From contig CAZBME010000001.1 of NCBI GenBank assembly GCA_964492965.1, forward strand, positions 210,705-274,704: a stretch of DNA of 64,000 nucleotides, given 5' to 3'. Source of the DNA: an uncultured Syntrophaceae bacterium (GTDB taxonomy: Bacteria; Desulfobacterota; Syntrophia; Syntrophales; UBA8958). Positions 15,068 to 29,283 of this stretch are shown piece by piece. The notes under the pieces are model-generated. The model made no database searches, had not been told where the DNA came from, and saw only the letters and a list, made by a program, of their open reading frames with translations. The position numbers were made by a program, and so were the translations under genes. Each line of letters begins with the position of its first letter. Position 1 is the stretch's first letter.

Positions 15068-15562
15068 CTAAAATTTTCCATCATAGGTGACAGACACGCT
15101 AACCATGCCGCGGCTACCGCCACAGTTGTAGGCTTCACCAATCTGGGTTCGTGTTTCAATCTTGTTTGTTTTTGAGTCCTTCCATCGGTATTCCGACGGG
15201 CTGTTATCACCTTTTTTTCGCTTTTCCATGGCCAGCTTGATAAACGGTTTGCCGTCGACATCTTTCAAGTCCATGTGGTTCTGGCCGACAAGAAACGGAT
15301 ATTTGCTATTGGCCAGGGTAATGCCGTTCCAATCGCCGATCGCGGGATAGGCATTCGCATATATTTTGAACTGCCCCTTGGGGTTGTTGATTTCTGCGAT
15401 GGCTTTGTCACACCCGACGTCCTTTGTGTAGGCAACAACCTTTTTCAGCAATTCCTTGGCCTGGGCAGGCGTGGCCATTTTATCCTGGGCTTGAACAAAC
15501 CCGGGAATCATTAACAAGGCGATTAAAGCAATGGCAACACAGCTTGATTTCGTTTTCATCAT
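15068..15562 (-). CDS. secreted stand-alone single-Cache (sCache_2-like) domain protein, paralog 2
   Basis: A signal peptide ends in VQAQD. The pattern AKELLKKVVAYTKDVGCDKAIAEINNPKGQFKI...YPFLVGQNHMDLKDVDGKPFI...EYRWKD...KIETRTQIGE is typical of Cache_2 sensor domains. No TM or output domain is present. Confidence 0.75.
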   Translation of the reverse strand: MMKTKSSCVAIALIALLMIPGFVQAQDKMATPAQAKELLKKVVAYTKDVGCDKAIAEINNPKGQFKIYANAYPAIGDWNGITLANSKYPFLVGQNHMDLKDVDGKPFIKLAMEKRKKGDNSPSEYRWKDSKTNKIETRTQIGEAYNCGGSRGMVSVSVTYDGKF

Positions 15563-15583: not shown

Positions 15584-16072
15584 TTATAATTTTCCTTCAT
15601 AGGTAATCGTAAAATTGACCTTGCCCTTGGGACCGCAATCCGTGGACTCGCCGATCAGCGTCCTGGTTTCAATCTTTTTCGTAACATTATCCAGCCATCT
15701 ATATTCCATCGGCGCACAGCCTGTTTTGCATTTTTCAACGGCGTTTTTGATGAAGGGTTTGCCATCTGCATCCTTCAAATCAATATGATTCTGACCGACC
15801 AGGAAAGGATATTTGGCATTGGCCAGCGTGATACCGCTCGACTCACCGGCTGTCGGATAGGCATTCTTGTAAATTTTGAACATGGTCCCTTTGTTTATTT
15901 CCGCAAACGCCTTGTCGCAGCCCGCTTCCTTTGCATAGGCCACTACTTTCTTCAATAATTCCTTCGCCTGGGCCGGCGTGGCCATTTTATCCTGGGCACA
16001 GGCTACGCCTGCCAGAAACATCACGGTCATTGCTACGGCTATACTCAACACAAACCAACTCTTTCCTTTCAT
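15584..16072 (-). CDS. secreted stand-alone single-Cache (sCache_2-like) domain protein, paralog 1
   Basis: By eye it is about two-thirds identical to the downstream paralog. It has a signal peptide ending ACAQD and the same Cache_2 pattern. Confidence 0.75.
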   Translation of the reverse strand: MKGKSWFVLSIAVAMTVMFLAGVACAQDKMATPAQAKELLKKVVAYAKEAGCDKAFAEINKGTMFKIYKNAYPTAGESSGITLANAKYPFLVGQNHIDLKDADGKPFIKNAVEKCKTGCAPMEYRWLDNVTKKIETRTLIGESTDCGPKGKVNFTITYEGKL

Positions 16073-16102: not shown

Positions 16103-17695
16103 TCACTCTTCTTCAAAGGGAATTAAAGCCGCCGGCTTTTTCCCTTGAGATTTCTTTCCTGCAAACCGGGATGCGCGGGCGCTTCCAGTGAATCTTTCGC
16201 GCCCCTCCCCTTCCCCTCTGCTTTCCGTCTTGAAGATGGACATGACATTCGATAAATTTTCGGCATTGCCCGCTGTCTGCTGGGTGGTATTGCTCATCTC
16301 GGCGATGGCGCTGTTCACCTGGTCAATCCCCTGAGCTTGCTCCTCTGATGCCGCGGCGATCTCGCTCATGAGTTCGACGACCTTGCCCGAACTGGCCGTC
16401 ACCTGCGAAAAGGCCGTGCTTGTGTTATTGACCAGGCTTTCACCATTGCGCACCTTCGTGACAATGTCGCCAATGAGATTAGACGAGCCCCTTGCCGATT
16501 CCGTGGCCCGCATGGCCAGATTCCGAACCTCATCGGCGACAACAGCAAACCCGGCGCCGGCTTCCCCAGCCCGGGCGGCCTCCACCGAGGCATTCAGGGC
16601 CAGCAGATTCGTCTGAAAGGCTATCTCATCAATGCTCTTGACAATCTTCTGGGTCTGTTCACTGGCCTGGGTAATTTCCTTCATCGACGACATCAAACCG
16701 GCCATAGATTCGTTGGCCTTTTGGATGGCATTCTGCGCCGATATCATCAGTTGATTAGCTTCTTGCGTGCTGGATGCATTCTGGCGGGTCATGGATGCAA
16801 TTTCGTCCAGAGAGGCCGATGTTTCCTCGATAGCAGCCGCCTCCTGGGTGGCCGAGTCGGATAGTATTTCCGATATGGCAAGGGCCTGGCCGACAGCGTC
16901 ATTCATCTTTCCCCGCATGGTGTTGACGGATTGGGCAAGCATACCGATTTCATCATTTTGCTCAATGTCAATACTGCGGGTAAGATCTCCTTCCGCCAGA
17001 TGACTCAGAATTGCCGTTGTCTCATGGACGGGCTTCAAAACCATTCGCGTCACGAGGATGCTGACCACAAAAGAAAGAAGAACGGCAATGACGACAACCG
17101 CCAAAAAGACCATGACGGTATAGTTGAAGGTCGCAACCGCCGTTTCATATTTTTCCTTGCTAAGCTTGTCTTCGAAGGCCAGCAGGCTCGACAGGAACTG
17201 GTTTAAGGCCTGATATTTATCATCCGTCATGGACATGAGCTGAATAGCCATGTCCGGATTCATGGCGGCGGCATCGAAAACGCCCAGGACGCCTTTCTGA
17301 TATTCGACCATATTATCAAGGGCCGACTGGAAGTTTTTTTTCTCTTCCGAGGTCAGCAGACCTGAGGCCAAAAGCTTTTTGATCATTTCGACATCGGCAT
17401 TCAATATATCCTTCAGCTGCTGAGAGGCATCGGCAATTTTCTTGGCATCCAGGTTTAATTTCATCCAGTTAAGAATTCGGGAAAGATTCCCATGAACGGT
17501 GGACATGTCGTTAAGGATCTTGGCGCTGTTCTGGTACTGTTTAAACCGATTGTTATAGATGTCGTCGATGGCATCCTTCTGAAGGGAAAGGCTGAAGTAC
17601 GTTCCGCATGCCAGGAGAATAAGGAAGATGAGGACAACAATGGGTGCCAGGAGCATCTTCTTGGCCAATTTCAAATTATTAAAGAAATCTCTCAT
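16103..17695 (-). CDS. methyl-accepting chemotaxis protein (two TM segments, helical periplasmic domain, HAMP, MA domain)
   Basis: TM1 is followed by an approximately 170-aa periplasmic region, TM2 and HAMP ([26 protein letters not shown]). The conserved signalling hairpin reads [38 protein letters not shown]. Confidence 0.93.
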
Positions 17696-17830
17696 ATTTA
17701 TGTCCTCTTCAATAAAAAATGTTGAGATTGTTTAAGACACCTTTAAACGTAAATAAATCTTGGATCCAGACAGGCGATCCAAAATCGACATAGCTGACGC
17801 GATAACAAGCCATCGATTTGTACTCTAACA

Positions 17831-17846
17831 GCAAAGACGGTGCCAG
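17831..17846 (-). promoter_or_regulatory. sigma-54 (-24/-12) promoter of the MCP/Cache operon
   Basis: The minus strand reads CTGGCAC-CGTCT-TTGCT, an exact TGGCAC-N5-TTGC with canonical GG-to-GC spacing. It lies about 135 nt upstream of the MCP start. Confidence 0.8.
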
Positions 17847-18166
17847 CTATGGAAAGCATCTGTCAGTAAAAGGCCTTTTCAGGGCACGGTCGGGGGATTT
17901 TACGCCATGATTTTGACAGGATGGCATTGGTTCCCCTTTATGGCATTATTCTGGTTGAATGCGTTAGACCCAAAGAGAAAGGCACCGATTTAACAGATAG
18001 GCCTGACTTGCATGGTAAATTATTTGACATGAGAGGCGGGGCTATCGTCAATTACTTGACATCGCCTTTACAGTTTCAACGAAAAGGGTCTTCAACGGGC
18101 GTAGCCCAGCCCTCCTGAACGGGTTGAGTGAAAGGTAGGATCAGCCATGGGAAAGCATGGGGAAAG

Positions 18167-18209
18167 CCGTCCTACCTCCCTGCTCAGGACGGGCAGGGAG
18201 GTAGGACGG
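18167..18209 (-). terminator. strong GC-rich hairpin immediately after the carboxylesterase gene (terminator-like, weak U-tract)
   Basis: CCGTCCTACCTCCCTGC-(9 nt)-GCAGGGAGGTAGGACGG forms a perfect 17-bp stem starting 15 nt past the stop codon. Confidence 0.6.
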
Positions 18210-18223
18210 TAAAAGGAAAATTG

Positions 18224-20011
18224 TTACCGAACAGACGGCCGATAACGGGAATTATCCCAAAAGGGCTGGATTTCCTTCACCCGGGGCTCCGCCTGCAAGG
18301 CTTTAAGAATATGGTCTTCCGTCAATTCTTTCCTGGAAATCTCGATTTTGAGGGTATTGGAATCTGCGTCGAGGAGAATGGTTTTCGGATATCCTTCGAT
18401 ATTGGACCAGGGTTTCCAGCCGGGCAATCCGGAACCCTCCCGGTTGGGACTGCCTGAACGGGCAAATTGAGCCCAATAGTCCATCATCGCATTCGACAGG
18501 GCAACCCGGCCGGGGCTGTTCTTGTCGTTGAAGACCAGCCCTCCGAGAGAAGCTTTTCCCGTTCCGAAGACAAAATCGATTTCCATGGCATGACAGGCGC
18601 CCAACAGGACATTAAAAGGAGGGGCAAGGACGCTCTTTTTCGCGCTGCCTGCCCCCCACAGGAACTGATAGGCATAAATCATAGGTTGATCGGCATTGGA
18701 TCTCAAGATTCCTGCCAACTGGTCGACACCCATGACCTTCCACCCATCGCTTTGATACTGGGCGGCAAGATCGTATAACTCTGCTTTGGCTGGATCTTTG
18801 AAAAGCGATCCGTCGGTTCTCCAGGATGCGAAGAGAGGGTCGTTACGCAGGAAAAGCTTTGCCTCTTCCTTGTTCGTTCCCAGAATGACAGGAACCCTAT
18901 TATACGCCCCCGCTTTCATGGCTTCGTAAAAATCAACAGGCAGAACCTTGCCATCGCTGAAGCTGTTCGGAAACCTGAACATCCCGATCACCGGTCCCTC
19001 GGCATAGAGGGCCAGCAATTCCCGGGCGTGCTTCGCTCTCAGATAATCAGCAACATCTTTACCTGACATTTTCTTCAGTTTGGCCTCAGCCGACTTTTCA
19101 TCGGATGCCATCCCGTCTTTCACGAAAAGTTTCAAAATTAAGCCATTCGCGTGTTGCGCCCCCTGATGAGGCGTCGACATTCGGATAACTCCGCTCTGGG
19201 AAATAGCCTTATGGAAGAGATTCCGGGAGAGAGGCGAGGCCATGAGAGAAATGACATTCTGCGCTCCGGCCGATTCCCCGACGATGGTTACATTTGCAGG
19301 ATCGCCGCCGAAGTTCTTGATGTTGGCCTTCACCCAGGACAAAGCCTGAATCAGATCCAAAAGGGCAAAATTACCTGAATCGCCGTTCTCATCTCCCTTC
19401 ATGCCATTGCGGAGGGAGGGATGACTGAGAAACCCCAATGGTCCCAGACGATAATTGACCGTCACCACAATCATGTTTTGCTTCCCCGCCAGGATGGCGC
19501 CATCCGTGTTGGAAAGCAGGGGCCATTGAATACTGTTTCCGCCACCGTGAATCCAGAAGAAGACGGGCAAATCCACGGCATCCGTTTTAGGACGCCAAAT
19601 ATTCAAATAAAGGCAGTCTTCATTGCCCTGAATCACCTGAGGCGTTGCGGGATTTCGGTCATGATCAATATACTGGGGGCATATCTCGCAAAAACCGGCC
19701 GCTTTAAAAGGAGCAGACCGTTTGTCGGGCGGCTGGGGGGCTCTCCAGCGCAGGTCGCCGACAGGCGCCTTGGCAAAGGGAATCCCTTTCCAGGAAAGGG
19801 TATGGGTTGCACTTTGCTCCTCACCTACAACATCGCCTTCCGTGGTCTGACGCACCGCAAGCAGTGACTCGGCGGCTTTTGTCTTTTCCTGGGCCCAAAC
19901 ATCCGTACCGTGAAAAGCTGCGATGTTGGGCAAAAGCACAAGCACAACCAAAACCAACCATAGAATCTTTTTCACCTGACGCATCTCATTGTATTTCTCT
20001 TTTTTCCTCAT
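18224..20011 (-). CDS. secreted type-B carboxylesterase/lipase (cholinesterase-like alpha/beta hydrolase)
   Basis: An N-terminal signal/TM segment is followed by the oxyanion region FWIHGGGNSIQ, the nucleophile elbow GESAGA, and a family-typical N-terminus (WKGIPFAKAPVGDLRW). Confidence 0.88.
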   Translation of the reverse strand: MRKKEKYNEMRQVKKILWLVLVVLVLLPNIAAFHGTDVWAQEKTKAAESLLAVRQTTEGDVVGEEQSATHTLSWKGIPFAKAPVGDLRWRAPQPPDKRSAPFKAAGFCEICPQYIDHDRNPATPQVIQGNEDCLYLNIWRPKTDAVDLPVFFWIHGGGNSIQWPLLSNTDGAILAGKQNMIVVTVNYRLGPLGFLSHPSLRNGMKGDENGDSGNFALLDLIQALSWVKANIKNFGGDPANVTIVGESAGAQNVISLMASPLSRNLFHKAISQSGVIRMSTPHQGAQHANGLILKLFVKDGMASDEKSAEAKLKKMSGKDVADYLRAKHARELLALYAEGPVIGMFRFPNSFSDGKVLPVDFYEAMKAGAYNRVPVILGTNKEEAKLFLRNDPLFASWRTDGSLFKDPAKAELYDLAAQYQSDGWKVMGVDQLAGILRSNADQPMIYAYQFLWGAGSAKKSVLAPPFNVLLGACHAMEIDFVFGTGKASLGGLVFNDKNSPGRVALSNAMMDYWAQFARSGSPNREGSGLPGWKPWSNIEGYPKTILLDADSNTLKIEISRKELTEDHILKALQAEPRVKEIQPFWDNSRYRPSVR

Positions 20012-20140
20012 CGGCTGCCAGTCTCCTTTATAAGTTTCACCATTAATGATATCGTATGATTAGAAACGTCAATAACAAAATATACACGTAAAATACAGGA
20101 TTATTCATCCATGGTTGAAAGCGGCGGGATGAGAACAAGA

Positions 20141-21052
20141 TTAATGGCCGACAACTGCGTTTACCCCCAGACCTTCAACAATGCCTTTTAATAACTGCAA
20201 TCGATCATCATCAGGCGCCTTGGCATCGGGCAGAAGATCGGGCCGTCCCAATTGTTTGTTTTTTGATCTTCCTCCTTCGTGATAGGGAAGGAAGGAAATC
20301 CTTTGTACTCCCAGATCCTTCCCGAAAAAGGCAATTTTCTTGATATGATCTTCAGAATCATTGAGCCCGGCAATAAGGGGAATACGAAGCCAAACGGGGG
20401 TTTTTTGCGCGGCCCTTTTCAGGTTACTCAAAATGACATCATGCCTCACGCCGGTGGTTCTTTCATGTTCGCCTGCATCAAGGTGCTTCAGATCGAAAAG
20501 GAGCAGATCAACCCAGGGCAGGAGGGCCTCCAGCGCCTTCCAAGAACCGTAACCGGATGTATCGAGAGCCGTGTACAATCCCTCATTTTTGCACTGCACC
20601 AACAGGTTACGGACAAACCGGCCCTGAGACAATGCCTCCCCTCCGGATATCGTCACACCGCCACCGGAGTTTTTATAAAAGATCCGGTCCTTAAGAACCT
20701 CCTCCAAAACCTCGGCAAGTGTCATCCCCTTCCCGCAGACGATCAGCGAACCATAGAGACAGGCGGGAACGCAGAGCATACAAAGATTGCATCGGCTGCG
20801 ATCGATGATTCGCCCTTTATCTCTTGAGAGGGTAATGGCCTTGTTGAGACAAGCGGCGACACAGGCACCGCAACCACTGCATAGGACATCCCTTGCCAAC
20901 AGGTCCGGGGAAAACCCCTGCGATTCGGGATTGGAACACCACAAACAACGCAGAGGACAACCTTTCATAAACACGGTGGTCCGAATCCCCGGCCCGTCGT
21001 GGACGCTGAAACGCTGAATATTGAAGATGAGGCCTGAGGCTTCGTCGTTCAT
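20141..21052 (-). CDS. glycyl-radical enzyme activating enzyme (radical SAM with a ferredoxin-like insert)
   Basis: The radical-SAM cluster motif is FSVHDGPGIRTTVFMKGCPLRCLWCSNPE (CX3CX2C). Two extra Cys clusters (CSGCGACVAAC and CNLCMLCVPAC) are typical of PFL2-class activases. Its start lies 4 nt from the GRE stop. Confidence 0.93.
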   Translation of the reverse strand: MNDEASGLIFNIQRFSVHDGPGIRTTVFMKGCPLRCLWCSNPESQGFSPDLLARDVLCSGCGACVAACLNKAITLSRDKGRIIDRSRCNLCMLCVPACLYGSLIVCGKGMTLAEVLEEVLKDRIFYKNSGGGVTISGGEALSQGRFVRNLLVQCKNEGLYTALDTSGYGSWKALEALLPWVDLLLFDLKHLDAGEHERTTGVRHDVILSNLKRAAQKTPVWLRIPLIAGLNDSEDHIKKIAFFGKDLGVQRISFLPYHEGGRSKNKQLGRPDLLPDAKAPDDDRLQLLKGIVEGLGVNAVVGH

Positions 21053-21055
21053 AGA

Positions 21056-23455
21056 TTATGTAAGGCTCTGCTCCGTTCTGGCGATAATATGGTCCTGGAG
21101 GCCCCGGGATAGATCGACGAAATAGGCGCTGAACCCGGCAACACGAACGATCATCTCGGCATACTTCTCTGGGTAGGTCTGGGCGGCGACCAAGGCCTTT
21201 TTATCGACAACATTGAACTGGATGTGGGGAACATTCAATTCCTTCCAGGATTTGAGGTAACCGATAAACGCCGGCCGAAAATCCGGTTCCAGGAACTTGG
21301 GAAGAAACTTCTGGTTCAGGAGGTGGTTATAAGTCTCCAGAGCCGTGATCTTAGCGCAGGATTTGAGGACTGCCGTGGGCCCTTTTTTATCCATCCCCGG
21401 TGAGGGCGCCAGGGTCGAGTCGGCAAAGGGCTCTCCATCCATACGGCCGTCCGGCGTGGCCGGGGTGTCGATGGCCAGTCCGTAAGTGGCGGAAACGGCG
21501 CTCCCGTCGCCCCGATTGGAAAAGCCATAGCGGTCTTTCACCGTTTCCATGACCGCCTCGCCCAAACGGTGGACTTCCTTGGCGACAAGATCGGCATAAT
21601 CGTCGTCGTTACCGAATTTTGGGGCGTTCAGACAGGCCCGGCGGATATCCTCCCGGCCTTCCCAGTTATTATCCATGATCCGGATCAATTCGGGAAGGGT
21701 AACCAGACCATCGTCGAAGACAACCTTCCGGAGCGCCGTTATGGCGTCGGCCACATTGGTCCCGCCGATGACCTGGGCAAAATGATGGATCATGGAGGGA
21801 TAGACCCACTTTCGGGCCTCTTGCCCCTTTTCGATACAACCTTCGACGACGGCGGAGTAAAAAGGCCGTGGGCAGTACTTGGCATACAACTCCAGGTTGA
21901 TCCTCTCCAATTGTTCAATCTTGTTTGTGAAGAATTGAACCTGCTCCAGATAGGACTGAAGGACATCCTCCCATGATTTGAATGTCGCCGGATCGGGTGT
22001 TCTGGCCCCCCGCTGTTCTCCCGTCTTGGGATTGACACCCTGATGGAGAGCCCACCAGAGGCATTTCGGGAGGACAAAATAACCTACGGAACGACGCATC
22101 ATATTTTTCCCGGGGATTTCGATATAGACACAGCCTGTGACGGCATAATCTTTCGCATCTTCCGGTGGCACCCCCCAACGATCCAGAAGGGGAAGGAGGG
22201 CTTCATCATTGAAGAGGGAGGGATAGCCCACGCCGGTTTTGATGACATCGGCAGCCTTCTCATAGACGCCCTCAGGCGTTCCCTCATGGATTCGCAAGCA
22301 GATGCTGGGTTCAATGAGCTGCAACTGTTTGGCTGCCTCCAGGGCGAGGTAGGTGAGATCGTTCGTCACGTCCCGACCATCTTTGTCAGTACCCCCGATG
22401 GTGACCGCCTGCAGGGAAGCCACACCGCCATAGACGGAACTCACCGTCGGCGAATAGACCAGCCCGAGTTCGTTGAGCTTGATCCAGAGGAGTTGGAGGA
22501 TGTCCAGGGCTTCTTCTTTTGTGATCCGCCCTTCTGCCAGATCCTTTTCATAATAGGGTCCGAAGATATGGTCGATACGGATGCCGACGCCTAATGTCGA
22601 GTATTCGAGATAGCGAATCAAGTGTATGAAAAAGAAAAACTGCACCGCTTCGGCGAAAGTCCTTGGCGGATTTTCGGGAACCCAGGCGCAGATACGGGCA
22701 ATCTCTTCCAATTCCGCGATTCTCGCCGGACGGGTTTCTTGTTTGGCTAGATTTCGGGCCAGTTCGGCGTAACGCCCGGCAAAACGGATGACTGCCTCCA
22801 GGGCGATGATCATGGCGTCGTAAAATTCCCGCTGTTCCACATAGTCGATGGGGATGGTCCCGTCGATCTCCTGAAGCCTCGCACGGACGGACTGAATCCG
22901 GCCCTTTAAACCTGTTTGAAAGAGGGTCTCGTAATCGGGGATGCCCAGTTCGGAGAGTTGGCTCCACAGATAGGTGCCTTCATAGGTCCAATAGGGCGAG
23001 AGGTCTTGCGGGAGGATCTCCTGGTGACGGTCGCTCATGGACTTCCCCTTCCAGTAGGCACAAAGTTCATCCAGTTCTCTGCGGCCGTCCTCATCCAGAA
23101 GCGTCTTCCCCGCCTCGCTGTTCACCAGCCTCAAAACCGATTTCCAGTTTTGATCAATGGGATGATAAATGCCGTTGGGATCAGATGTTTGATACCCCAC
23201 AATCCGCTCATGATCCCGGATAAAAATATCCATCTTATCCAAGAGATTGGCCAGGGCCTTGGCCCTGCGGACGACCATGGACTGTCCGTCCGTTTCCTTG
23301 AACGATTCCGTCATCAACCGGGACCGCTGCAAATCCAGCCTGATTTCCGACCGGTACATTCCCCGTTTCGACTCATCATCGGCGTAGCCCCGCTTGATAT
23401 TGCGAACAGCCTTGCTGATGACCTTTTTTCTTAGCCCTTCGGCTTTTGCTGTCAT
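21056..23455 (-). CDS. glycyl radical enzyme (PFL2 / dehydratase-like class by length and C-terminus); substrate unknown
   Basis: The 799-aa protein has the C-terminal glycyl-radical fingerprint MIVRVAGFSAYFVDL (Gly774 codon at 21134-21136). The Cys loop AVTGCVYIEIPG has its Cys442 codon at 22130-22132. No small-subunit genes are adjacent. Confidence 0.92.
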   Translation of the reverse strand: MTAKAEGLRKKVISKAVRNIKRGYADDESKRGMYRSEIRLDLQRSRLMTESFKETDGQSMVVRRAKALANLLDKMDIFIRDHERIVGYQTSDPNGIYHPIDQNWKSVLRLVNSEAGKTLLDEDGRRELDELCAYWKGKSMSDRHQEILPQDLSPYWTYEGTYLWSQLSELGIPDYETLFQTGLKGRIQSVRARLQEIDGTIPIDYVEQREFYDAMIIALEAVIRFAGRYAELARNLAKQETRPARIAELEEIARICAWVPENPPRTFAEAVQFFFFIHLIRYLEYSTLGVGIRIDHIFGPYYEKDLAEGRITKEEALDILQLLWIKLNELGLVYSPTVSSVYGGVASLQAVTIGGTDKDGRDVTNDLTYLALEAAKQLQLIEPSICLRIHEGTPEGVYEKAADVIKTGVGYPSLFNDEALLPLLDRWGVPPEDAKDYAVTGCVYIEIPGKNMMRRSVGYFVLPKCLWWALHQGVNPKTGEQRGARTPDPATFKSWEDVLQSYLEQVQFFTNKIEQLERINLELYAKYCPRPFYSAVVEGCIEKGQEARKWVYPSMIHHFAQVIGGTNVADAITALRKVVFDDGLVTLPELIRIMDNNWEGREDIRRACLNAPKFGNDDDYADLVAKEVHRLGEAVMETVKDRYGFSNRGDGSAVSATYGLAIDTPATPDGRMDGEPFADSTLAPSPGMDKKGPTAVLKSCAKITALETYNHLLNQKFLPKFLEPDFRPAFIGYLKSWKELNVPHIQFNVVDKKALVAAQTYPEKYAEMIVRVAGFSAYFVDLSRGLQDHIIARTEQSLT

Positions 23456-23491
23456 ATCATCCCCTTTTTTCTATCGTTGAGTGAAGATTCG

Positions 23492-24259
23492 TCAGAAACG
23501 GATCCCCTGACCGCCTCCGATAACCATCTCCTTGCCCGTCATGAATGATGCCGCATCCGAGCAGAGCCACAAAACGGCCCCGGCAATCTCTTCGGGCTTG
23601 CCGAAACGTCTCAAGGGCACTGTGGCGATAATCGCATCTTTCATTTGAGGGCTCTCCGTACATAACGCCTCCACCATAGGCGTCTGTACAAACCCCGGAC
23701 AGACGGCGTTGACACGAATGTTCCGATGGGCGGTCTCGAGGGCGGCCGCCTTCGTGAGGCCCAAAACGGCATGCTTGCTGGCGGCGTAGAGGCTCATTCC
23801 TTCTTCGCTGCGGATGCCGGCCATCGACGAGCAGTTGACGACAGCCCCGCCGCCCTGCTTCACCATCATGGGGATTTCATACTTCAGGCAGAGCCAGACG
23901 CTTCTGAGGTTGGTGTCCATGATCGTGTTCCATTCGTCCATGGTCGTATTGGCAAGCCGTCGGACGGAAGCCCCGACGCCGGCATTGTTGAAGGCGCAGT
24001 CCAACCTGCCGTATCGTTCGGCAATCGCTTTGAAAAGGTTTTCAATATCGCCGGGCAGTGCAACATCGGTTTTGATGAAAATCGCCTCTCCCCCATTATC
24101 TTCTATTTCTTTCACGACTTCAACACCAAGTTTCTCCCGGCGAGCCGCAATGACGACCTTCGCGCCTTCCCGGGCAAAAGCCAGAGCGGCCGCACGGCCT
24201 ATCCCGGAATTCCCTCCAGTCACCAGTGCAACCATGTCCTGAAATCTTTTTGTGTTCAA
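23492..24259 (-). CDS. classical short-chain dehydrogenase/reductase, paralog B
   Basis: VTGGNSGIGRA, NNAG and S...YAASK are present. I place the start at the TTG at 24259, 6 nt after AAAGGAGG. The track start at 24280 lies inside or upstream of that SD. Confidence 0.88.
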   Translation of the reverse strand: MNTKRFQDMVALVTGGNSGIGRAAALAFAREGAKVVIAARREKLGVEVVKEIEDNGGEAIFIKTDVALPGDIENLFKAIAERYGRLDCAFNNAGVGASVRRLANTTMDEWNTIMDTNLRSVWLCLKYEIPMMVKQGGGAVVNCSSMAGIRSEEGMSLYAASKHAVLGLTKAAALETAHRNIRVNAVCPGFVQTPMVEALCTESPQMKDAIIATVPLRRFGKPEEIAGAVLWLCSDAASFMTGKEMVIGGGQGIRF

Positions 24260-24282
24260 TTTGCGCCTCCTTTGTTCCAATA

Positions 24283-25047
24283 TTAAATCGTGTAGCCCCC
24301 GTCTATGGCAATCTCCTTGCCGATCATAAAGGCGGCCTCATCCGAGCAGAGCCAGAGCACCGCACCGGCAATCTCGTCCGGAGAGCCGATCCGCTTCATG
24401 GCCGTACCGTTTTTCAGCATGCCCAGCATGGTGGGCACGAACGGCACCGCGCTTTCGATCATTTCCGTCATGATCGGACCGGGACAAACGGCATTGATCC
24501 GGATATTTTTCCGGGCGTACTCGAGGGCCGCCGTTTTTGTCAGACCCAGGATGCCATGCTTGCTGGCACAATAATGGGTAAGACCGTATTCGCCCGAAAA
24601 ACCGAGGATAGAGGCCGTGTTCACGATGATCCCTCCCCCCTGCTTCAGCATCTGCGCGATTTCCTGTTTCATGCACAGCCAGATGCCACGCATATTGGTC
24701 TCCATGACCAGGTTCCATTCGTCCAATGTGGTCTTGGCGGCGGTGGGAATATGGGGCAGAGATGCGCCGGCATTGTTGAAAGCGATGTCCAAACGTCCAT
24801 ACATTTCAAGGATTGTTTTAAAGAGATGATCGATTTCTTCGGGTTTGCGGACGTCCGTCCTGACAAAGGCCGCTTCACCCCCACTATTTCTAATTTCTTC
24901 GACAACCTCGTTTCCAAGGTTTTCCCGGCGTCCCGCAATGACGACCTTCGCCCCTTCCCGCCCGAAGGCTAAAGCCGCGGCTCGCCCGATTCCCGAAGTG
25001 CCACCCGTGACCAGAGCCACTTTGGCTAAAAACATTTTAATGTCCAA
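24283..25047 (-). CDS. classical short-chain dehydrogenase/reductase, paralog A
   Basis: VTGGTSGIGRA, NNAG and S...YCASK are present. The track ORF runs to 25182 but crosses an intergenic repeat. A plausible start is the TTG at 25047 after AAGGAGAAG, or the ATG at 25035. Confidence 0.85.
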   Translation of the reverse strand: MDIKMFLAKVALVTGGTSGIGRAAALAFGREGAKVVIAGRRENLGNEVVEEIRNSGGEAAFVRTDVRKPEEIDHLFKTILEMYGRLDIAFNNAGASLPHIPTAAKTTLDEWNLVMETNMRGIWLCMKQEIAQMLKQGGGIIVNTASILGFSGEYGLTHYCASKHGILGLTKTAALEYARKNIRINAVCPGPIMTEMIESAVPFVPTMLGMLKNGTAMKRIGSPDEIAGAVLWLCSDEAAFMIGKEIAIDGGYTI

Positions 25048-25087
25048 TATCCATCTTCTCCTTTCTTCAAATACTGCAAAAGCCCTC

Positions 25088-25140
25088 GTTCCCCTCCCCC
25101 CTAAAAAGAGGAGTTCAAAATAGAGGTTTGGGAAACAAAG
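25088..25140. repeat. intergenic repeat, copy A (polypyrimidine/polypurine element)
   Basis: The plus strand reads GTTCCCCTCCCCCCTAAAAAGAGGAGTTCAAAATAGAGGTTTGGGAAACAAAG. It aligns by eye with copy B at 26979-27035. Confidence 0.55.
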
Positions 25141-25199
25141 GGCATTTTCCTCGCAGACCGCAGAAGAGAACGTCTTCCTCAAGCCATAAAGTCAACTTC

Positions 25200-25577
25200 C
25201 TATTTTATCTTTTTACCTTCCCAGGTACCTTTTGCCTTGCCCGCAAAATCAACGGTGCCGGACATTTTCTTGGGGTCAATCACTTTACCCGTGTATATAG
25301 CCGGTCCTGCTTTGGGATCCGTCGTAAACTGGAAGGTAATATCGTTGCCCTTAAGAGTCCCTGTTAAGGGCGCTTCCCCGATAGAACCGGCATATTGTCC
25401 CGTCAATTTTTCTCCTTCCTGCTTGAATGTCACGACAGGATTGCCGCTGCCTTTGGGGGTAACAACGGTGAAAAACCACTTACCGGTAATATTCGGGCCC
25501 TGTGCCTGAACCAATGTTGCTGATGCTGCCAAACCCATAACGACCAAACACACAACGACCACACTAAATCTTTTCAT
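25200..25577 (-). CDS. small secreted beta-rich protein; function unknown
   Basis: The signal peptide is MKRFSVVVVCLVVMGLAASATLVQAQG. Repeated G-K-W/LTG-x-F beta-strand-like motifs follow. I moved the start to the ATG at 25577, 6 nt after AAGGAG. Confidence 0.7.
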   Translation of the reverse strand: MKRFSVVVVCLVVMGLAASATLVQAQGPNITGKWFFTVVTPKGSGNPVVTFKQEGEKLTGQYAGSIGEAPLTGTLKGNDITFQFTTDPKAGPAIYTGKVIDPKKMSGTVDFAGKAKGTWEGKKIK

Positions 25578-25590
25578 AAGCATCTCCTTC

Positions 25591-25630
25591 ATATTTTATT
25601 GTCTGATTTTATTGTCTTGATTTTATCTTA
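25591..25630. repeat. three imperfect tandem copies of ATTTTATTGTCTG in a 35-nt intercistronic gap
   Basis: The sequence ATATTTTATTGTCTG ATTTTATTGTCTTG ATTTTATCTTA lies between the MFS stop and the start of the small secreted protein. Confidence 0.5.
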
Positions 25631-26893
25631 TATATGGCCCTTTGATTCCTTCAGCATGAGGATGGCAATCATCGCAATGAGATAGAATACCGAGATAGCT
25701 GTCATAACCGTCGTCAACCCCAGTTGCGAAGCCGCTGCGCCCATGGCGAGCGGGACGATTGTAGAGATCAGACGTCCTGTCGAGAATCCGGCAGCAACAC
25801 CCACCGCACGGATATGGGTGGGAAATTGTTCAACCAGATAAGCGGCCAGAATAGCCCAGATGGCCGACGCGACAAACCAGTTTGCACCTCCGCATAAGAA
25901 GAATATTCTGTCGTCTTCCCACTCAAATCCAAGCCACACATAAAACGTGACTGCCGAAAGAAACGCAAAGGCGGCCATTGAAACGCGCTTGCCGAATTTA
26001 TGGGCGCAAATGCCGCCCATCAGATAAGCGGCAGCGGCGGCAAACTGCAAAACCATCAGGAACGTGGAATATACTTTCGGGCTCAGGCCTCTTTCCCTGG
26101 CCAGAACCGTGGGAAGGAACGTGTTAACTGACCAGTAAGTGATCATCATCGACGTGCATAGAACAACAACCCACAAAAACGATCGAATGTTATCGCTTTT
26201 AAAAAGATCACCCATGCCAACCTCAGCCACAGGAACGCCGGCAGCGATGCCCTTTTTCTTGTCCGCCTGAAGTTGCATCCACATGGGCGATTCCGGAATG
26301 GCAACCTGGATGTAAATGGCAAGAAAAACAGCCGTTGCGCCGGCAAAATAAAGAATCGGCCAGCCAAAATAGGGGGTAAGAAAATAAGAGATTAAAATAG
26401 TGAGACCGTAACCGATCGGCCAACCAAACATCATGTAGGAGCTTATTTTAGCCCGCCTTGCAGGCTCCGTGAATTCCTGTAAAAGCGTGCCGGCCAGGGC
26501 CCATTCCGCGCCAAGCCCCAAACCCGCAAGGAATCGCAGAATTGACAGCTGGATGTAGTCTTGACAAAAACCGGCAAGACCTGTGGTAATGCCAAAGAAG
26601 GCAATACACCAGACCAACGCCGTTTTCCGGCCGAACTTGTCGGCGATGGGGCCAAAGATATAGCCGCCGAAACTCATGCCCAGCAGCATGCATGTGCCGA
26701 TAACACCAAGTTGCAGAATCGTGAGTGTCGGCCACGCATTTAATAACAAAGGCGCCGCAAGTGCAAAAACCATAATATCCATGCCGTCAAAGGCGTAACC
26801 GGCGATTGAAATCGCCAACACCTTCCCCCTGTACTTGGCGGCATCAACAATCCCACCTCCCACAGTTCCATTTCCCGCTACTGCAACTGACAT
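25628..26893 (-). CDS. MFS transporter
   Basis: The 421-aa protein has about 12 TM segments and the MFS loop motif GPIADKFGRKTAL. GAAGGAGG SD precedes the start. Confidence 0.88.
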   Translation of the reverse strand: MSVAVAGNGTVGGGIVDAAKYRGKVLAISIAGYAFDGMDIMVFALAAPLLLNAWPTLTILQLGVIGTCMLLGMSFGGYIFGPIADKFGRKTALVWCIAFFGITTGLAGFCQDYIQLSILRFLAGLGLGAEWALAGTLLQEFTEPARRAKISSYMMFGWPIGYGLTILISYFLTPYFGWPILYFAGATAVFLAIYIQVAIPESPMWMQLQADKKKGIAAGVPVAEVGMGDLFKSDNIRSFLWVVVLCTSMMITYWSVNTFLPTVLARERGLSPKVYSTFLMVLQFAAAAAYLMGGICAHKFGKRVSMAAFAFLSAVTFYVWLGFEWEDDRIFFLCGGANWFVASAIWAILAAYLVEQFPTHIRAVGVAAGFSTGRLISTIVPLAMGAAASQLGLTTVMTAISVFYLIAMIAILMLKESKGHI

Positions 26894-26978
26894 CTACTTT
26901 CCTCCTTCAATGAATTTATTACTACCATTATGACGCATACCGCTCTCGCAGCATTATAAGTGCTCAAAGCTTGAGTGG

Positions 26979-27035
26979 AATTCCCCACCCTCCAAAAAGA
27001 GGGGGTAAAACAGAGGGTGAGGAACCCAGACAAAA
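26979..27035. repeat. intergenic repeat, copy B
   Basis: The plus strand reads AATTCCCCACCCTCCAAAAAGAGGGGGTAAAACAGAGGGTGAGGAACCCAGACAAAAG. It shares the core with copy A: CCCC..CC.AAAAAGAGG.G.T.AAAA.AGAGG.T..GG.AA.C. Confidence 0.55.
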
Positions 27036-27053
27036 GCGCTTGATTGCGTTTCC

Positions 27054-28715
27054 TTATTTTCTGGCCATTTCTTCTTCCCGCAGGATCTTGCGGAGAATCT
27101 TGCCGACCGCTGACTTCGGAATGCCATCGCGAAATTCCACCAATTTCGGAACCTTGTACGGCGCCAGCTTTTCCTTGCAGAATTTAATGATCTCGGCCTC
27201 CGTGGCCGTTTGACCTGCTTTCAAAACAACGAAGACCTTGATGGTTTCTCCCCGATACGGATCGGGAACACCCACCGTAACCGCCTCCGCCACCTTGGGA
27301 TGCCGGTAGAGGACCTCATCCACTTCCCGTGGATAGATATTGAAGCCACCGGCAATGATCATGTCCTTCTTCCTGTCCACGATGGTGATATATCCATCCC
27401 CGTCCATCTGTCCGACATCCCCCGTACGGAGCCAACCGTCCCGCAACTGGAGATTGGTCTCCTCCGGATTGTTCCAGTAACCCAGCATCACGGTAGGCCC
27501 CTTGATGATGATCTCTCCCGGTTCGCCCTGCGGCACATCCTCCGTGCCGTTTTCGAGATCGACAAGGCGGACTTCGTTATCAATGGAAGGTACGCCGATG
27601 GAACCCGTCTTGTGGGCCAGGGCGGGGTTGCTGACCCCCATGGATGTCGTTTCACTCATTCCCCAACCTTCGCTGAAGAAAATCCCCATATCCTTAACCT
27701 TATGAATAAGTTCGACGGGCATGGGGGCTCCCCCGGAATTAAAGTAACGGATCTTTTCCGGAAGTTTCATCTCATCGGCCTTGGGGTGATTGATAATAGC
27801 CGTGATCATGGTCGGCACCGTCGGAAAGAAGGTGATTTGCTCAAAACGGGCAAAAGTGCCGAGCAATTCATCCATGTCGAAGCGGGGCAGCTGAATCTGG
27901 GTCGCCATGCTCAAAAACGCCCAGTTCATGCAGCAGAGATTGCCGTAAATATGGAAATAGGGGATGATGCCCAGAACCGTTCGCTTCTCATGAGGGGTAT
28001 AGGGAATGGTCGAGTTCCCCCACTGGACGCACTGGAAGGTCGCTGCAACGACGTTGCCATGTGACAGGAGAGCGCCTTTGGGCAATCCCGTCGTCCCACC
28101 CGTAAACTGGATCAGGGCCGGATCATCAGGGCTGAAGGCCGTCCGGGGGATTCTTGTATCCATTGAACCGGCCAGGAGTTCCGAGAAGTGGTGCCACCCT
28201 TCTTCCAGTTCCAGATCCTTGGCCGTGCTCACATCAAACGCCTTGATATAGTCCGTCAGTCTTGTCACGATCATCTGCTTGAGCCCCAGTTCAATGGCCA
28301 GGGGCCGCATGGTAGGAAGGGCGCCGTCGAAGGTGATCAATGTTTCCAAATGAGTGTTTTCCATCATGAACTTAAGTTCGTCATGGGTGTATAAAGGGTT
28401 CATATTCACCACAATGGCCCCGGCAGACAGAGCAGCATAGTAGGCGATGATATACTGGGGACAGTTCGGCAGGGCGATGCCGATACGGTCGCCTTTCTTC
28501 ACGCCGAAGCGAATGAAGGCATTGGCCAGACGCAGGACCTGATCGCGCACCTGCCGGAAGGTCAGCTCCGTTCCATAGAAATCGACGGCTGCCTTGTGAG
28601 GAAACTGAGCCGCCGCCAGGTGGACCAGGTTCTGGATGGGGAATTTCGGGTAACGGATGGTGGTGGGAACATTATAATCGTAATTTCTTTGCCAAAAACG
28701 TGTTTCCAACAACAA
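27054..28715 (-). CDS. AMP-forming acyl-CoA ligase (FadD-like)
   Basis: Motifs FTGGTTGLPKGALLSH, GWGMSE, WLRTGDVG and PKSAVGKILRK are present. Three consecutive TTG codons (28715, 28712, 28709) after GGAGG make the start ambiguous by up to 6 nt. Confidence 0.92.
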   Translation of the reverse strand: MLLETRFWQRNYDYNVPTTIRYPKFPIQNLVHLAAAQFPHKAAVDFYGTELTFRQVRDQVLRLANAFIRFGVKKGDRIGIALPNCPQYIIAYYAALSAGAIVVNMNPLYTHDELKFMMENTHLETLITFDGALPTMRPLAIELGLKQMIVTRLTDYIKAFDVSTAKDLELEEGWHHFSELLAGSMDTRIPRTAFSPDDPALIQFTGGTTGLPKGALLSHGNVVAATFQCVQWGNSTIPYTPHEKRTVLGIIPYFHIYGNLCCMNWAFLSMATQIQLPRFDMDELLGTFARFEQITFFPTVPTMITAIINHPKADEMKLPEKIRYFNSGGAPMPVELIHKVKDMGIFFSEGWGMSETTSMGVSNPALAHKTGSIGVPSIDNEVRLVDLENGTEDVPQGEPGEIIIKGPTVMLGYWNNPEETNLQLRDGWLRTGDVGQMDGDGYITIVDRKKDMIIAGGFNIYPREVDEVLYRHPKVAEAVTVGVPDPYRGETIKVFVVLKAGQTATEAEIIKFCKEKLAPYKVPKLVEFRDGIPKSAVGKILRKILREEEMARK

Positions 28716-28756: not shown

Positions 28757-29283
28757 TCTGAAAAAGGTCACACAAACCGGGAATTCCACCATCGGGGCCA
28801 TCTACCGGGAGAACAATAATTCATGCCGCCCTGATGCAAGCTTCTGTAAAATTGGGGAAGCCATTGCATTGTGCGTACCAGAACGGCAGAATCTTTCTAA
28901 CATGCTTATTTAACTTATTTATTTAATTAGGCGAAAGGCGACGATCTCATGATTAGCGATATTGATGTTTCAGTATCGTTGCAAACATCATCGCCATTGT
29001 AACTGATATGTAACGTTTATGAAACATTCACACCTCCGCAACCGCGGCGAATGCATCAGATTTGCTGGTTATTAAAAGCTCCTTGGGGCCGCTTACGCAT
29101 GCCTATGTGCTTTAGACTATATTGAGTGATTAATTGATATTTGTGTAAGGTATTTTTGCTTAGGGGTAAAAGTTACTATTTCGCAGAGAACCATTTAACA
29201 TTTTAGATCTTCGGTACGAGTCGGGATTGCACCTTTCAGCCATACTTTTCTTCATTCATAGAGCTTATACGAAATTTCTTCCG

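Follow-up and report, generated by a model that had tools for sequence, protein, structure and literature searches.

The window analysed here, a 64,000-nucleotide stretch of DNA from an uncultured Syntrophaceae bacterium, encodes on its minus strand an oxygen-sensitive glycyl radical enzyme (GRE) of 799 aa (21056..23455), delimited as an open reading frame and assigned PFL-like and Gly_radical domains (PF02901 and PF01228) from the 100% identical database protein P0001. Translation and alignments place its Cys loop, A438-VTG-C442-V-Y444-I-E446-IPG449, at 22109..22144 on the minus strand, where the reverse complement reads GCC GTC ACA GGC TGT GTC TAT ATC GAA ATC CCC GGG. This translation bears out the loop sequence reported in an initial annotation of this DNA, with Cys442 at 22130-22132 and a Tyr two residues later (Tyr444, 22124-22126); Glu446 follows at 22118-22120. 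The thiyl-radical Cys column is Cys in all 150 GRE representatives that we surveyed, and the enzyme has a single Cys at this site (G441-C442) rather than the two adjacent catalytic cysteines of the formate lyases PFL and TdcE. The glycine loop that serves as the radical storage site spans residues 771-782 (R771 to L782, RVAGFSAYFVDL; 21110..21145, minus strand, from translation), with G774 at 21134-21136. R771-V-A-G774 is invariant across the family, in line with the intact glycyl-radical motif noted initially, and the radical-bearing Gly774 is kept, with no Ala, Ser or Thr replacement as in aminoacyl radical enzymes (AAREs).

Starting 3 bp past the GRE stop, a gene for a radical-SAM GRE-activating enzyme of 303 aa (20141..21052, minus strand) matches TIGR02494 with 330.6 bits against a cut-off of 174, and its product carries a CxxxCxxC motif and two ferredoxin-like Cys clusters. 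The radical machinery is complete, comprising the Gly774 loop, the Cys442 loop and the radical-SAM activase, and the locus is predicted to code for a functional stand-alone GRE with its activase. Directly upstream of the GRE gene lie two tandem SDR oxidoreductase paralogs that are 58% identical to each other (23492..25182, minus strand), followed, in the same direction, by genes for a small secreted protein (25200-25592), an MFS organic-acid transporter (25628-26893) and an acyl-CoA ligase (27054-28715); in this genome only, the genes at 25200..28715 may share an operon. Downstream of the activase, a further local neighbour on the minus strand (18224..20011) encodes a secreted type-B carboxylesterase (Pfam COesterase, E = 7e-93) with an N-terminal signal-like segment.

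Across homologous loci, only the activase recurs as a partner. It adjoins the GRE in 81 of 107 loci, and besides it no neighbour exceeds 13: acyl-CoA dehydrogenase was found at 13 loci, CoA ligase at 9 and SDR at 9, the Smithella SDR being 35% identical. The last three were too rare and too divergent to count as partners, and a search for any other conserved pathway partner by neighbour clustering, over 27 and then 111 loci, returned the activase alone. A co-directional gene is absent upstream in 35 of 78 loci and downstream in 31 of 56. The GRE and its activase are a stand-alone two-gene module, an arrangement that suits an enzyme catalysing one step on its own. Genes for organic-acid transporters, CoA ligases and TetR or sigma-54 regulators turn up here and there among the loci, in keeping with an acid substrate. 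Neighbours otherwise vary by lineage (fatty-acid/CoA genes, sugar-acid-type dehydrogenases and dehydratases, threonine dehydratase, esterases), so that no coherent substrate emerges from context. A scan for sigma-54 promoters gave 32 matches where 31.8 were expected by chance.

We compared the enzyme with curated GRE profiles and solved structures. Its best NCBIfam matches all fell below the cut-off (HpsG, 551 bits against 1000; TIGR01774, 548 against 678). The eliminase equivalogs HpsG, HpfG, HypD, CutC and PflD/YbiW-type scored 409-551 bits against cut-offs of 1000-1109, the decarboxylase profiles IAD and HPAD 377 against 1100 and 298 against 1150, and the PFL profile 84 against 994; the ten nearest 50%-identity cluster representatives likewise lie under every NCBIfam equivalog cut-off. 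All PDB matches with E <=1e-60 are GREs, the best being IseG (5ymr, 465 bits), with glycerol dehydratase (GDH) at 442, 2f3o at 389, MASS at 371, BSS at 350, AAD (7e7l) at 332 and HPAD (2y8n) at 220 bits. By sequence, we place the enzyme in the PFL-like division of the GRE superfamily, in a distinct and as yet uncharacterised clade within the PFL2/glycerol-dehydratase-like branch. A literature search for a characterised GRE with a GCVY-type loop found none, and with scores below every NCBIfam cut-off the protein belongs to no characterised family. Its own family runs to hundreds of sequences, recovered from digester, sediment and groundwater samples and belonging to Desulfobacterota or carried on genuine Asgard contigs; it is widespread, highly conserved and unstudied, in sediment bacteria and Asgard archaea alike.

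Across Desulfobacterota and Asgard archaea, some 220 homologs, at 56-100% identity, all carry Tyr444. The pattern GCVY[ILV][ED][IV]PGK occurs in 120/120 database homologs of at least 75% identity, and the Tyr is present at each of 97 independently fetched genomic and metagenomic loci whose products are 56-87% identical to the query. A Tyr at Cys+2 is, on this conservation, neither a chance nor a strain-level substitution. The second loop residue singled out for a conservation check, the Glu at Cys+4, did not hold up in the same way: whereas Tyr is kept in 97/97, the Cys+4 residue across the 97 family members plus the query is Glu in 88, Asp in 3 and Cys in 7, the Cys marking one subclade. With Cys in 7/97 members, Glu446 is dispensable, and its candidacy as a relocated base was ruled out on that column.

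To relate the loop to known active sites, we used HMMER alignments to solved glycerol dehydratase, propanediol dehydratase, HypD, CutC and 9rco, in all of which the Cys loop is gap-free; for the solved enzymes, residues come from papers and numbering, the PDB alignments giving the match line only. In this frame query C442 falls on GDH residue 433 (Cys433, an identity column) and Y444 on GDH residue 435, the CXE Glu (GDH residue roles from PMC13450708). The second site of interest is the dipeptide Glu169-Leu170 on strand beta1 (22946..22951, minus strand), both residues being invariant in the family. A 151-sequence L-INS-i alignment anchored on IP[DN]Y sets Leu170 at the eliminase beta1 'common site', which is His, Asp or Gln in eliminases (His164 in GDH, His160 in HypD, Asp216 in CutC, Gln193 in IslA), and Glu169 in place of the usually conserved preceding Gly. 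In the pairwise HMMER alignment it is Glu169 that falls on GDH His164, leaving the beta1 register ambiguous by one residue; we regard the pairwise placement as less likely, and Glu169 was dropped as the His164 counterpart once the anchored alignment gave Leu170.

Further invariant residues cluster at equivalent positions. Arg454-Arg455 (22091..22096, minus strand), on strand beta6 at Cys+12/Cys+13, is predicted to lie beside Tyr444 and to bind an anion. Arg455 aligns gap-free with Thr502 at the Cys+13 position of CutC, where Thr502 (Cys+13) and Tyr506 (Cys+17) are active-site residues (PMC8473560). X-succinate synthases carry a carboxylate-binding Arg on the same strand, beta6 (BSS Arg508, MASS Arg492; PMC12358834), and Arg454/Arg455 lie 1-2 alignment positions from this fumarate-binding Arg, a one-residue hairpin indel blocking an exact match. 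Y444, L170, R454 and D650 are kept in 97/97 of the independent loci, whose identity reaches as low as 56%, and E169 and R455 in 96-97/97; Tyr459, Asp650, Ser652 and Ser655 are further invariant polar residues of the predicted pocket. Arg454/Arg455, Tyr459, Glu169 and Asp650 are at, or flank, active-site positions of solved relatives. Proximity of the Tyr444, Arg455 and Glu169 side chains is predicted from homology and hairpin geometry; an AlphaFold2 model built from 38 aligned family members, none less than 75% identical, reached a mean pLDDT of 53.6 and stayed below 50 throughout the active-site region.

Every characterised GRE 1,2-eliminase and isomerase keeps the CXE Glu (review PMC13450708), as the initial annotation had said of eliminases and dehydratases. 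Tyr444 occupies that column here in ungapped alignments, and the beta1 'common site', polar in those enzymes, holds Leu170 in the multiple alignment (Glu169 in the pairwise alignment to GDH). The canonical eliminase acid/base pair, a Cys+2 Glu and a beta1 His, Asp or Gln, thus appears to be replaced by invariant Tyr444 and Leu170, and its absence supports the view that this is not a standard eliminase. The original proposal of a non-standard mechanism is strengthened to that extent, by the exchange of the CXE Glu for an invariant Tyr and of its beta1 partner for Leu170 and by the lack of a matching characterised family, but it overstated how exceptional CXE loss is: Glu at Cys+2 is absent from 79 of 150 GRE cluster representatives (53%), including nearly all of the closest clusters, so such loss is not rare. 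Among the 71 representatives with that Glu, 51 also have the beta1 His, and the query has neither; an acidic residue at the Glu169 column occurs in seven representatives, all without Glu at Cys+2. Two assignments within the survey were rejected: P0127, with a C-x-Q loop, as a phenylacetate decarboxylase, on numbering and an ill-fitting Cys+13 residue, and the other two C-x-Y clusters, P0160 and P0183, as the characterised arylacetate decarboxylase, their best PDB match being GDH and not 7e7l.

Taken as a whole, the explanation towards which we lean, with modest confidence, is that the enzyme acts on an anion in a pocket formed by Tyr444 and Arg455 and completes the reaction by a non-classical step. 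Its substrate would be a small anion, a carboxylate being the likeliest, that Arg455/Arg454 bind next to the Cys loop, although these Arg residues could equally bind sulfonate or phosphate, or be structural. Tyr444 would serve as hydrogen-bond and proton partner in place of the Glu, tuned by Arg455 and possibly by Glu169. Because Tyr444 stands in for the usual Glu, the follow-up step would be other than classical Glu-assisted ketyl elimination. As to what that step is, one tentative candidate is cleavage of a C-C bond in a carboxylic acid, as in decarboxylases. Just as tentatively, the family may form a further GRE class in which Tyr-Arg, perhaps with a beta1 Glu, replaces the Glu/His pair on a small carboxylate or other anion, performing none of the formate-lyase, decarboxylase, eliminase, isomerase or fumarate-addition reactions, with horizontal transfer having carried the module between Desulfobacterota and Asgard archaea.

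Somewhat less probable, and on balance unlikely, is that the enzyme is still a 1,2-eliminase or isomerase whose base has moved to Glu169 on beta1, or in which an Arg455-activated Tyr444 tyrosinate deprotonates a substrate hydroxyl, with the carbonyl product passing to neighbouring dehydrogenases. The highest similarities are indeed to C-S and C-O eliminases (IseG, GDH and the HpsG model), invariant Glu169 adjoins the beta1 catalytic site, which in HypD lies 2.5 Å from the CXE Glu (PMC7077986), and the seven of seven acidic representatives that lack a Cys+2 Glu would suit a relocated base; yet the characterised eliminases and isomerases all keep CXE, and in the better-supported alignment the beta1 site itself is Leu170. 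An SDR, a Zn-ADH or a 3-hydroxyacyl-CoA dehydrogenase beside the pair in several lineages fits a carbonyl-forming reaction, but no dehydrogenase is family-wide (the SDRs, at 9/107 loci, share only 35% identity from one lineage to another), and genes for microcompartments or aldehyde dehydrogenases were not encountered.

Addition of a hydrocarbon or other C-H substrate to fumarate or an alkene, as by an X-succinate-synthase-like hydroalkylase, we consider improbable. It would account for the lack of Glu at Cys+2, shared with BSS-like sequences (CMS), and for Arg454/Arg455 lying so near the fumarate-binding Arg of BSS and MASS, and it suits hosts from Desulfobacterota and Syntrophales lineages known for hydrocarbon degradation as well as the CoA ligase, acyl-CoA dehydrogenase and carboxyl-transferase genes in some neighbourhoods. 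Similar single-Cys PFL-like genes of Asgard archaea have also been annotated in this way, the Hermodarchaeota GREs, with about 30% identity to AssA/BssA, having been proposed as Ass/Bss (PMC8163825). Against it, BSS and MASS score below the eliminases, the beta1 site that binds fumarate in X-succinate synthases (Ser/Tyr) is Leu here, and the pocket has many invariant polar residues (Glu169, Tyr444, Asp650, Ser652, Ser655). Nor do small Fe-S subunit genes accompany the GRE: no free-standing ORF reaches 35 aa in the intergenic spaces of 19900-25700, and the 130-aa neighbour in the window is a secreted protein without Cys clusters; at other loci, neighbour ORFs were taken from 90-100 aa upwards, a length too great for such subunits.

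A decaying paralog or pseudo-enzyme, for which the missing canonical Glu is the sole support, is effectively refuted by conservation, given Gly and Cys loops, Tyr444, Arg454/455 and dozens more positions invariant at 56-100% identity across bacteria and archaea, an activase kept in 81/107 loci and an intact reading frame.

GRE function is usually predicted from the Cys-loop motif. The clade signature found here (E169-L170, C442-V-Y444, R454-R455, Y459, D650) fits no characterised class, so the chemistry is probably unlike that of known GREs. Current database labels for these genes are formate acetyltransferase, choline TMA-lyase and 'hypothetical'. Separately, environmental studies have read similar genes as alkyl- or benzylsuccinate synthases (PMC8163825). 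The formate acetyltransferase, choline TMA-lyase and alkyl-/benzylsuccinate synthase labels are unsupported. The reaction, once known, would establish either new GRE chemistry or a mechanistic variant with Tyr for the 'essential' Glu, and would fill a gap named by a 2026 review by revealing what the first archaeal PFL-like GREs do. Should the family indeed form a further GRE class, its two-gene module might channel a metabolite common in anaerobic sediments into central metabolism.

Among known systems, the C-S and C-O eliminases IseG/IslA, HpsG and GDH give the best scores and share with the query their length, the ten-stranded barrel family, a single Gly-preceded Cys, an equal-length Cys-loop hairpin with PGK, the RVxG loop and the activase type. 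They differ in that identity is only ~35-37%, scores are half the curated cut-offs, and the query has Tyr444 for the CXE Glu and Leu170 for the beta1 His/Gln. IslA binds sulfonate through an Arg/Gln/Arg triad, whose beta1 Arg/Gln sit in a segment that the query lacks (in one alignment, with IseG); the query has Arg at Cys+12/+13 instead. BSS and MASS resemble it in their single Cys without a Cys+2 Glu, in a beta6 carboxylate-binding Arg near Arg454/455 and in overlapping host lineages, but similarity is lower (350-371 bits), the window lacks beta, gamma and delta accessory subunit genes, their pocket is hydrophobic where that of the query is polar, the loop reads CMS rather than CVY, and the query hairpin is shorter. 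In the phenylacetate decarboxylase PAD/PhdB, Gln484 stands at Cys+2, and the essential residues are those at Cys+2, at Cys+13 (Trp495) and on strand beta8 (Tyr691) (review). Matched by residue offset alone, these positions correspond roughly to query Tyr444, Arg455 and Asp650; the residues differ, and both enzymes share the stand-alone organisation of GRE and activase. HPAD and IAD keep CXE, which the query does not, and the family comparison gave no indication of an arylacetate substrate. Archaeal PFL-like GREs, of debated or unknown function, were acquired from bacteria (PMC8163825; 2026 review). Archaeoglobus fulgidus PflD (2f3o) and the Asgard 'Ass/Bss-like' GREs are such archaeal single-Cys PFL-like enzymes; at 389 bits 2f3o is not of the same family as the query, whose own family is likewise present in archaea, on genuine Asgard contigs.

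The window encodes an intact glycyl radical enzyme (GRE) with its own activase, under strong purifying selection. The 799-residue minus-strand ORF (21056-23455) carries the Cys loop A438-V-T-G-C442-V-Y444-I-E446-I-P-G449 (22109-22144, minus strand; Cys442 codon at 22130-22132) and the C-terminal motif R771-VAG774FSAYFVDL; ORF and reverse-complement translation agree with the coordinates and loop reading of the initial annotation. The 303-residue radical-SAM activase (20141-21052, minus strand) begins 3 bases downstream and scores above the curated TIGR02494 cut-off (330.6 versus 174 bits).

A homolog search among 5.8 billion proteins returned 956 matches at E ≤ 1e-50. The best 120 of these 956, which are 75-100% identical to the query and come from Desulfobacterales, Smithellaceae, Syntrophaceae, unclassified Deltaproteobacteria and 'Promethearchaeota' MAGs, carry GCVY[ILV][ED][IV]PGK in 120/120 cases. 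A second sample of 97 more full-length members from GTDB genomes and JGI/ENA metagenomes (56-87% identity) showed no variation at G774 or C442, kept Y444, L170, R454 and D650 in 97/97 and E169 and R455 in 96-97/97. Because it is kept in 120/120 and 97/97 homologs, Tyr444 (Cys+2) is a defining character of this family, which we call CVY-type. The same homologs did not uphold the Glu at Cys+4 that the initial annotation had stressed: residue 446 is E in 88, D in 3 and C in 7 sequences (97 fetched members plus the query), and Glu446 is dispensable. The cysteine variant, with loop GCVYMC, occurs in a Desulfomonilaceae-type subclade of ~68% identity (loci L025, 9863-14823, and L100); in L025, two additional ORFs, of 148 residues and of 298 residues with a ferredoxin-like Cys motif, separate GRE from activase. 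Altogether 52 polar or aromatic positions are invariant within the family and rare elsewhere, including E169, Y285-S286-T287, S347, Y444, R455, W467-W468, H557-H558, T657 and D663.

The absence of a Cys-x-Glu motif (CXE), also claimed initially, was borne out by phmmer alignments in which the Cys loop is gap-free against five solved GREs: 1r8w (glycerol dehydratase, GDH), 5i2a (propanediol dehydratase, PD), 6vxc (HypD), 5fav (CutC) and 9rco. The full-length alignment pairs C442 with GDH residue 433 and Y444 with residue 435; Cys433 and Glu435 are catalytic in GDH, and CXE is kept by all six C-O eliminases, CutC, three C-S lyases and three isomerases, whereas PFL and TdcE carry Cys-Cys, and Cys+2 is Glu in the decarboxylases HPAD and IAD and Gln in PAD (PMC13450708). 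The proposed acid of GDH is His164 (PMC13450708), whose beta1 equivalent in HypD sits 2.5 Å from the CXE Glu (PMC7077986). Glu169 matched His164 when the query and GDH were aligned pairwise with HMMER, whereas a multiple alignment anchored on IP[DN]Y (SELGIPDY versus, for example, IGHFIPDY) paired the His with Leu170 and the preceding Gly with Glu169, a placement that we consider the better one. By the Tyr444 and Leu170 alignments, therefore, the acid/base pair of eliminases is replaced at both positions, and neither catalytic residue of the eliminase and isomerase mechanism is present in the window GRE.

When 150 GRE cluster representatives were aligned with L-INS-i, Cys+2 was Glu in 71 and another residue in 79; loss of this Glu is thus common among unstudied GREs and, taken alone, not extraordinary. 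The beta1 column was His, after a conserved Gly, in 51 of the 71 CXE sequences. The family's invariant carboxylate, Glu169, lies one residue from that column, and all of the representatives that are acidic at the Glu169 column (7/150) lack Glu at Cys+2, a weak hint that an acidic beta1 residue might compensate for the lost Glu. There may be a larger superclade that pairs an acidic beta1 residue with a non-Glu Cys loop. In the sister clusters P0123, P0131 and P0163 (~33-45% identity), Cys+2 is Trp or Gln (NCMWP, HCMQP) and the beta1 Glu is shared (WEM/WEA...PNY), in a region missing from the N-truncated P0131. Tyr at Cys+2 occurred in three clusters, the other two being uncharacterised P0160 (GCVYSS) and P0183 (GCIYPT), which are 35-38% identical to the query, match GDH best in the PDB (~500 bits) and lack Glu169 and Arg455; C-x-Y thus arose more than once.

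As far as our tools can see, the window GRE lies outside every characterised family. It reached no NCBIfam equivalog cut-off (score/cut-off: HpsG 551/1000, HypD 466/1100, CutC 437/1050, PflD-type 409/1109, IAD 377/1100, HPAD 298/1150, PFL 84/994), nor the TIGR01774 subfamily cut-off (548/678). Its top solved relatives were IseG (465 bits), GDH (442), CutC (439), PD (426) and IslA (417), with the X-succinate synthases MASS (371) and BSS (350) and the decarboxylases AAD (332) and HPAD (220) more remote. Scanned exhaustively with HMMER, 1.84 billion 50%-identity cluster representatives yielded one with an identical-type loop (GCVYLE, 57% identity); the next best, at 42-45%, carry AVI, MWP, VSW, VGW, VTW, LQP and VRW loops, GCVE-type clusters first appear at ~37%, and the ten nearest all fall below every curated NCBIfam cut-off. 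Literature searches found no enzyme with a CVY-type loop, and function is lacking for whole GRE clades and all archaeal PFL-like GREs (PMC13450708). Near-identical homologs are annotated inconsistently as 'formate C-acetyltransferase', 'choline trimethylamine-lyase', 'pyruvate formate lyase family protein' or 'hypothetical', none of which the catalytic residues support.

Together the GRE and activase form a self-contained unit of two genes that is horizontally mobile. Read along the minus strand, the window has acyl-CoA ligase, MFS transporter, small secreted protein, two SDRs, GRE, activase and secreted carboxylesterase, then chemoreceptor and two Cache proteins, with beta-oxidation operons and several sigma-54 activators on both sides. 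The tandem SDR paralogs (23492-24280 and 24283-25182, minus strand) are 58% identical; the upstream ORF probably starts near M49 (MFLAK...), because SDR profile matches (start residue 49-53) leave a ~48-residue N-terminal extension uncovered. Across 107 loci the activase was present in 81, followed by acyl-CoA dehydrogenase (13), CoA ligase (9) and SDR (9) neighbours, and the substrate was not identifiable from neighbouring genes; a co-directional gene was absent within 300 bp upstream in 35/78 loci and downstream in 31/56. Desulfatitalea has a CoA ligase, Liv-type ABC transporter, the pair and a Zn-ADH; Smithellaceae have a threonine-dehydratase-like PLP enzyme, the pair and a gluconate-5-dehydrogenase-type SDR amid housekeeping genes; two MAGs have neighbouring 3-hydroxybutyryl-CoA dehydrogenase and BaiCD/OYE-type reductase; other loci have TetR regulators, or tannases and IS elements. 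The closest genomic relative (L003, 87% identity, 4.8-Mb ENA contig) encodes at 18027-21562, 6 kb downstream of its CVY-type pair, a second, unrelated GRE (841 residues, 30% identity, Glu at Cys+2), accompanied by an activase of its own and an acetate kinase. The family also occurs on a Promethearchaeota contig (L027, 8001-10409, JBHLNQ010000022.1), beside clearly archaeal eIF2-gamma, TFIIS/RPB9 zinc ribbon, form III RuBisCO and IF-2B genes, and in a Hodarchaeota MAG (L020, 9980-12394), at 76% and 56% identity, respectively, which implies that the pair was transferred recently across domains, between Desulfobacterota and Asgard archaea.

As a whole, the window forms an organic-acid/CoA catabolic island. 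Two tandem secreted single-Cache (sCache_2) proteins of ~163 residues (15068-15562 and 15584-16072, minus strand) adjoin a methyl-accepting chemotaxis protein (16103-17695), with which they may make up a sensing module for small ligands, downstream of the GRE string. A perfect sigma-54 -24/-12 consensus, TGGCACCGTCTTTGCT (17830-17845, minus strand), precedes the chemoreceptor gene by ~135 bp, and a two-mismatch motif (28865-28880, minus strand) precedes the acyl-CoA ligase heading the GRE string by ~150 bp; total motif matches equal the chance number, and the window encodes at least five sigma-54 activators. An HpaB-family protein (48085-49542, minus strand) belongs to an operon-like string that also encodes acyl-CoA dehydrogenase, thiolase, acyl-CoA ligase and a Liv-type binding protein; the HpaB-family Pfam also includes 4-hydroxybutyryl-CoA dehydratase.

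AlphaFold2 from the shallow family alignment gave an unusable model (pLDDT 53.6), and all side-chain proximities are homology-based. Substrate-facing beta6 residues include CutC Thr502 (Cys+13) and Tyr506 (Cys+17) and HypD Tyr450 (Cys+16) (PMC8473560); because 155 query residues align to CutC gap-free, Arg455 and Tyr459, both invariant in the family, occupy the Thr502 and Tyr506 positions. A small substrate bound by Arg455/Arg454 would lose a hydrogen atom to Cys442, with Tyr444, beside Arg455 and possibly Glu169, as proton or hydrogen-bond partner, and the next step would be unlike Glu-assisted ketyl elimination.

Our split among reaction classes is rough. Decarboxylase-like C-C cleavage is a tentative candidate that fits the stand-alone organisation of GRE and activase and has a precedent in PAD, whose three essential residues, Gln484 (Cys+2), Trp495 (Cys+13) and Tyr691 on beta8 (PMC13450708), lie approximately, matched by offset only, at the distinctive Tyr444, Arg455 and Asp650; a new reaction class is possible with equally tentative standing. 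Elimination or isomerisation with a relocated base is only slightly less probable than these two, and is favoured by the enzyme's top sequence similarity, the adjacent Glu169 and dehydrogenase neighbours in some loci. Fumarate addition is improbable: it would suit the host lineages and the Arg position, since a beta6 Arg holds one fumarate carboxylate in X-succinate synthases (BSS Cys493/Arg508, MASS Cys477/Arg492; PMC12358834) and, mapped through the BSS-like stand-in P0190 (755 bits to TutD), falls 1-2 residues from Arg454/Arg455, a one-residue indel barring exact assignment, but the window has no small accessory-subunit ORFs, the pocket is predicted to be polar and sequence similarity is lower.

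The CVY-type family has a clearly defined residue signature and is a GRE clade whose active site is non-canonical; of the initial interpretation, the missing Cys-x-Glu base and the probable departure from the standard eliminase mechanism stand, and the importance of Glu at Cys+4 does not. Compared with the eliminases, the loop has equal length, and their Glu is Tyr in the window GRE.
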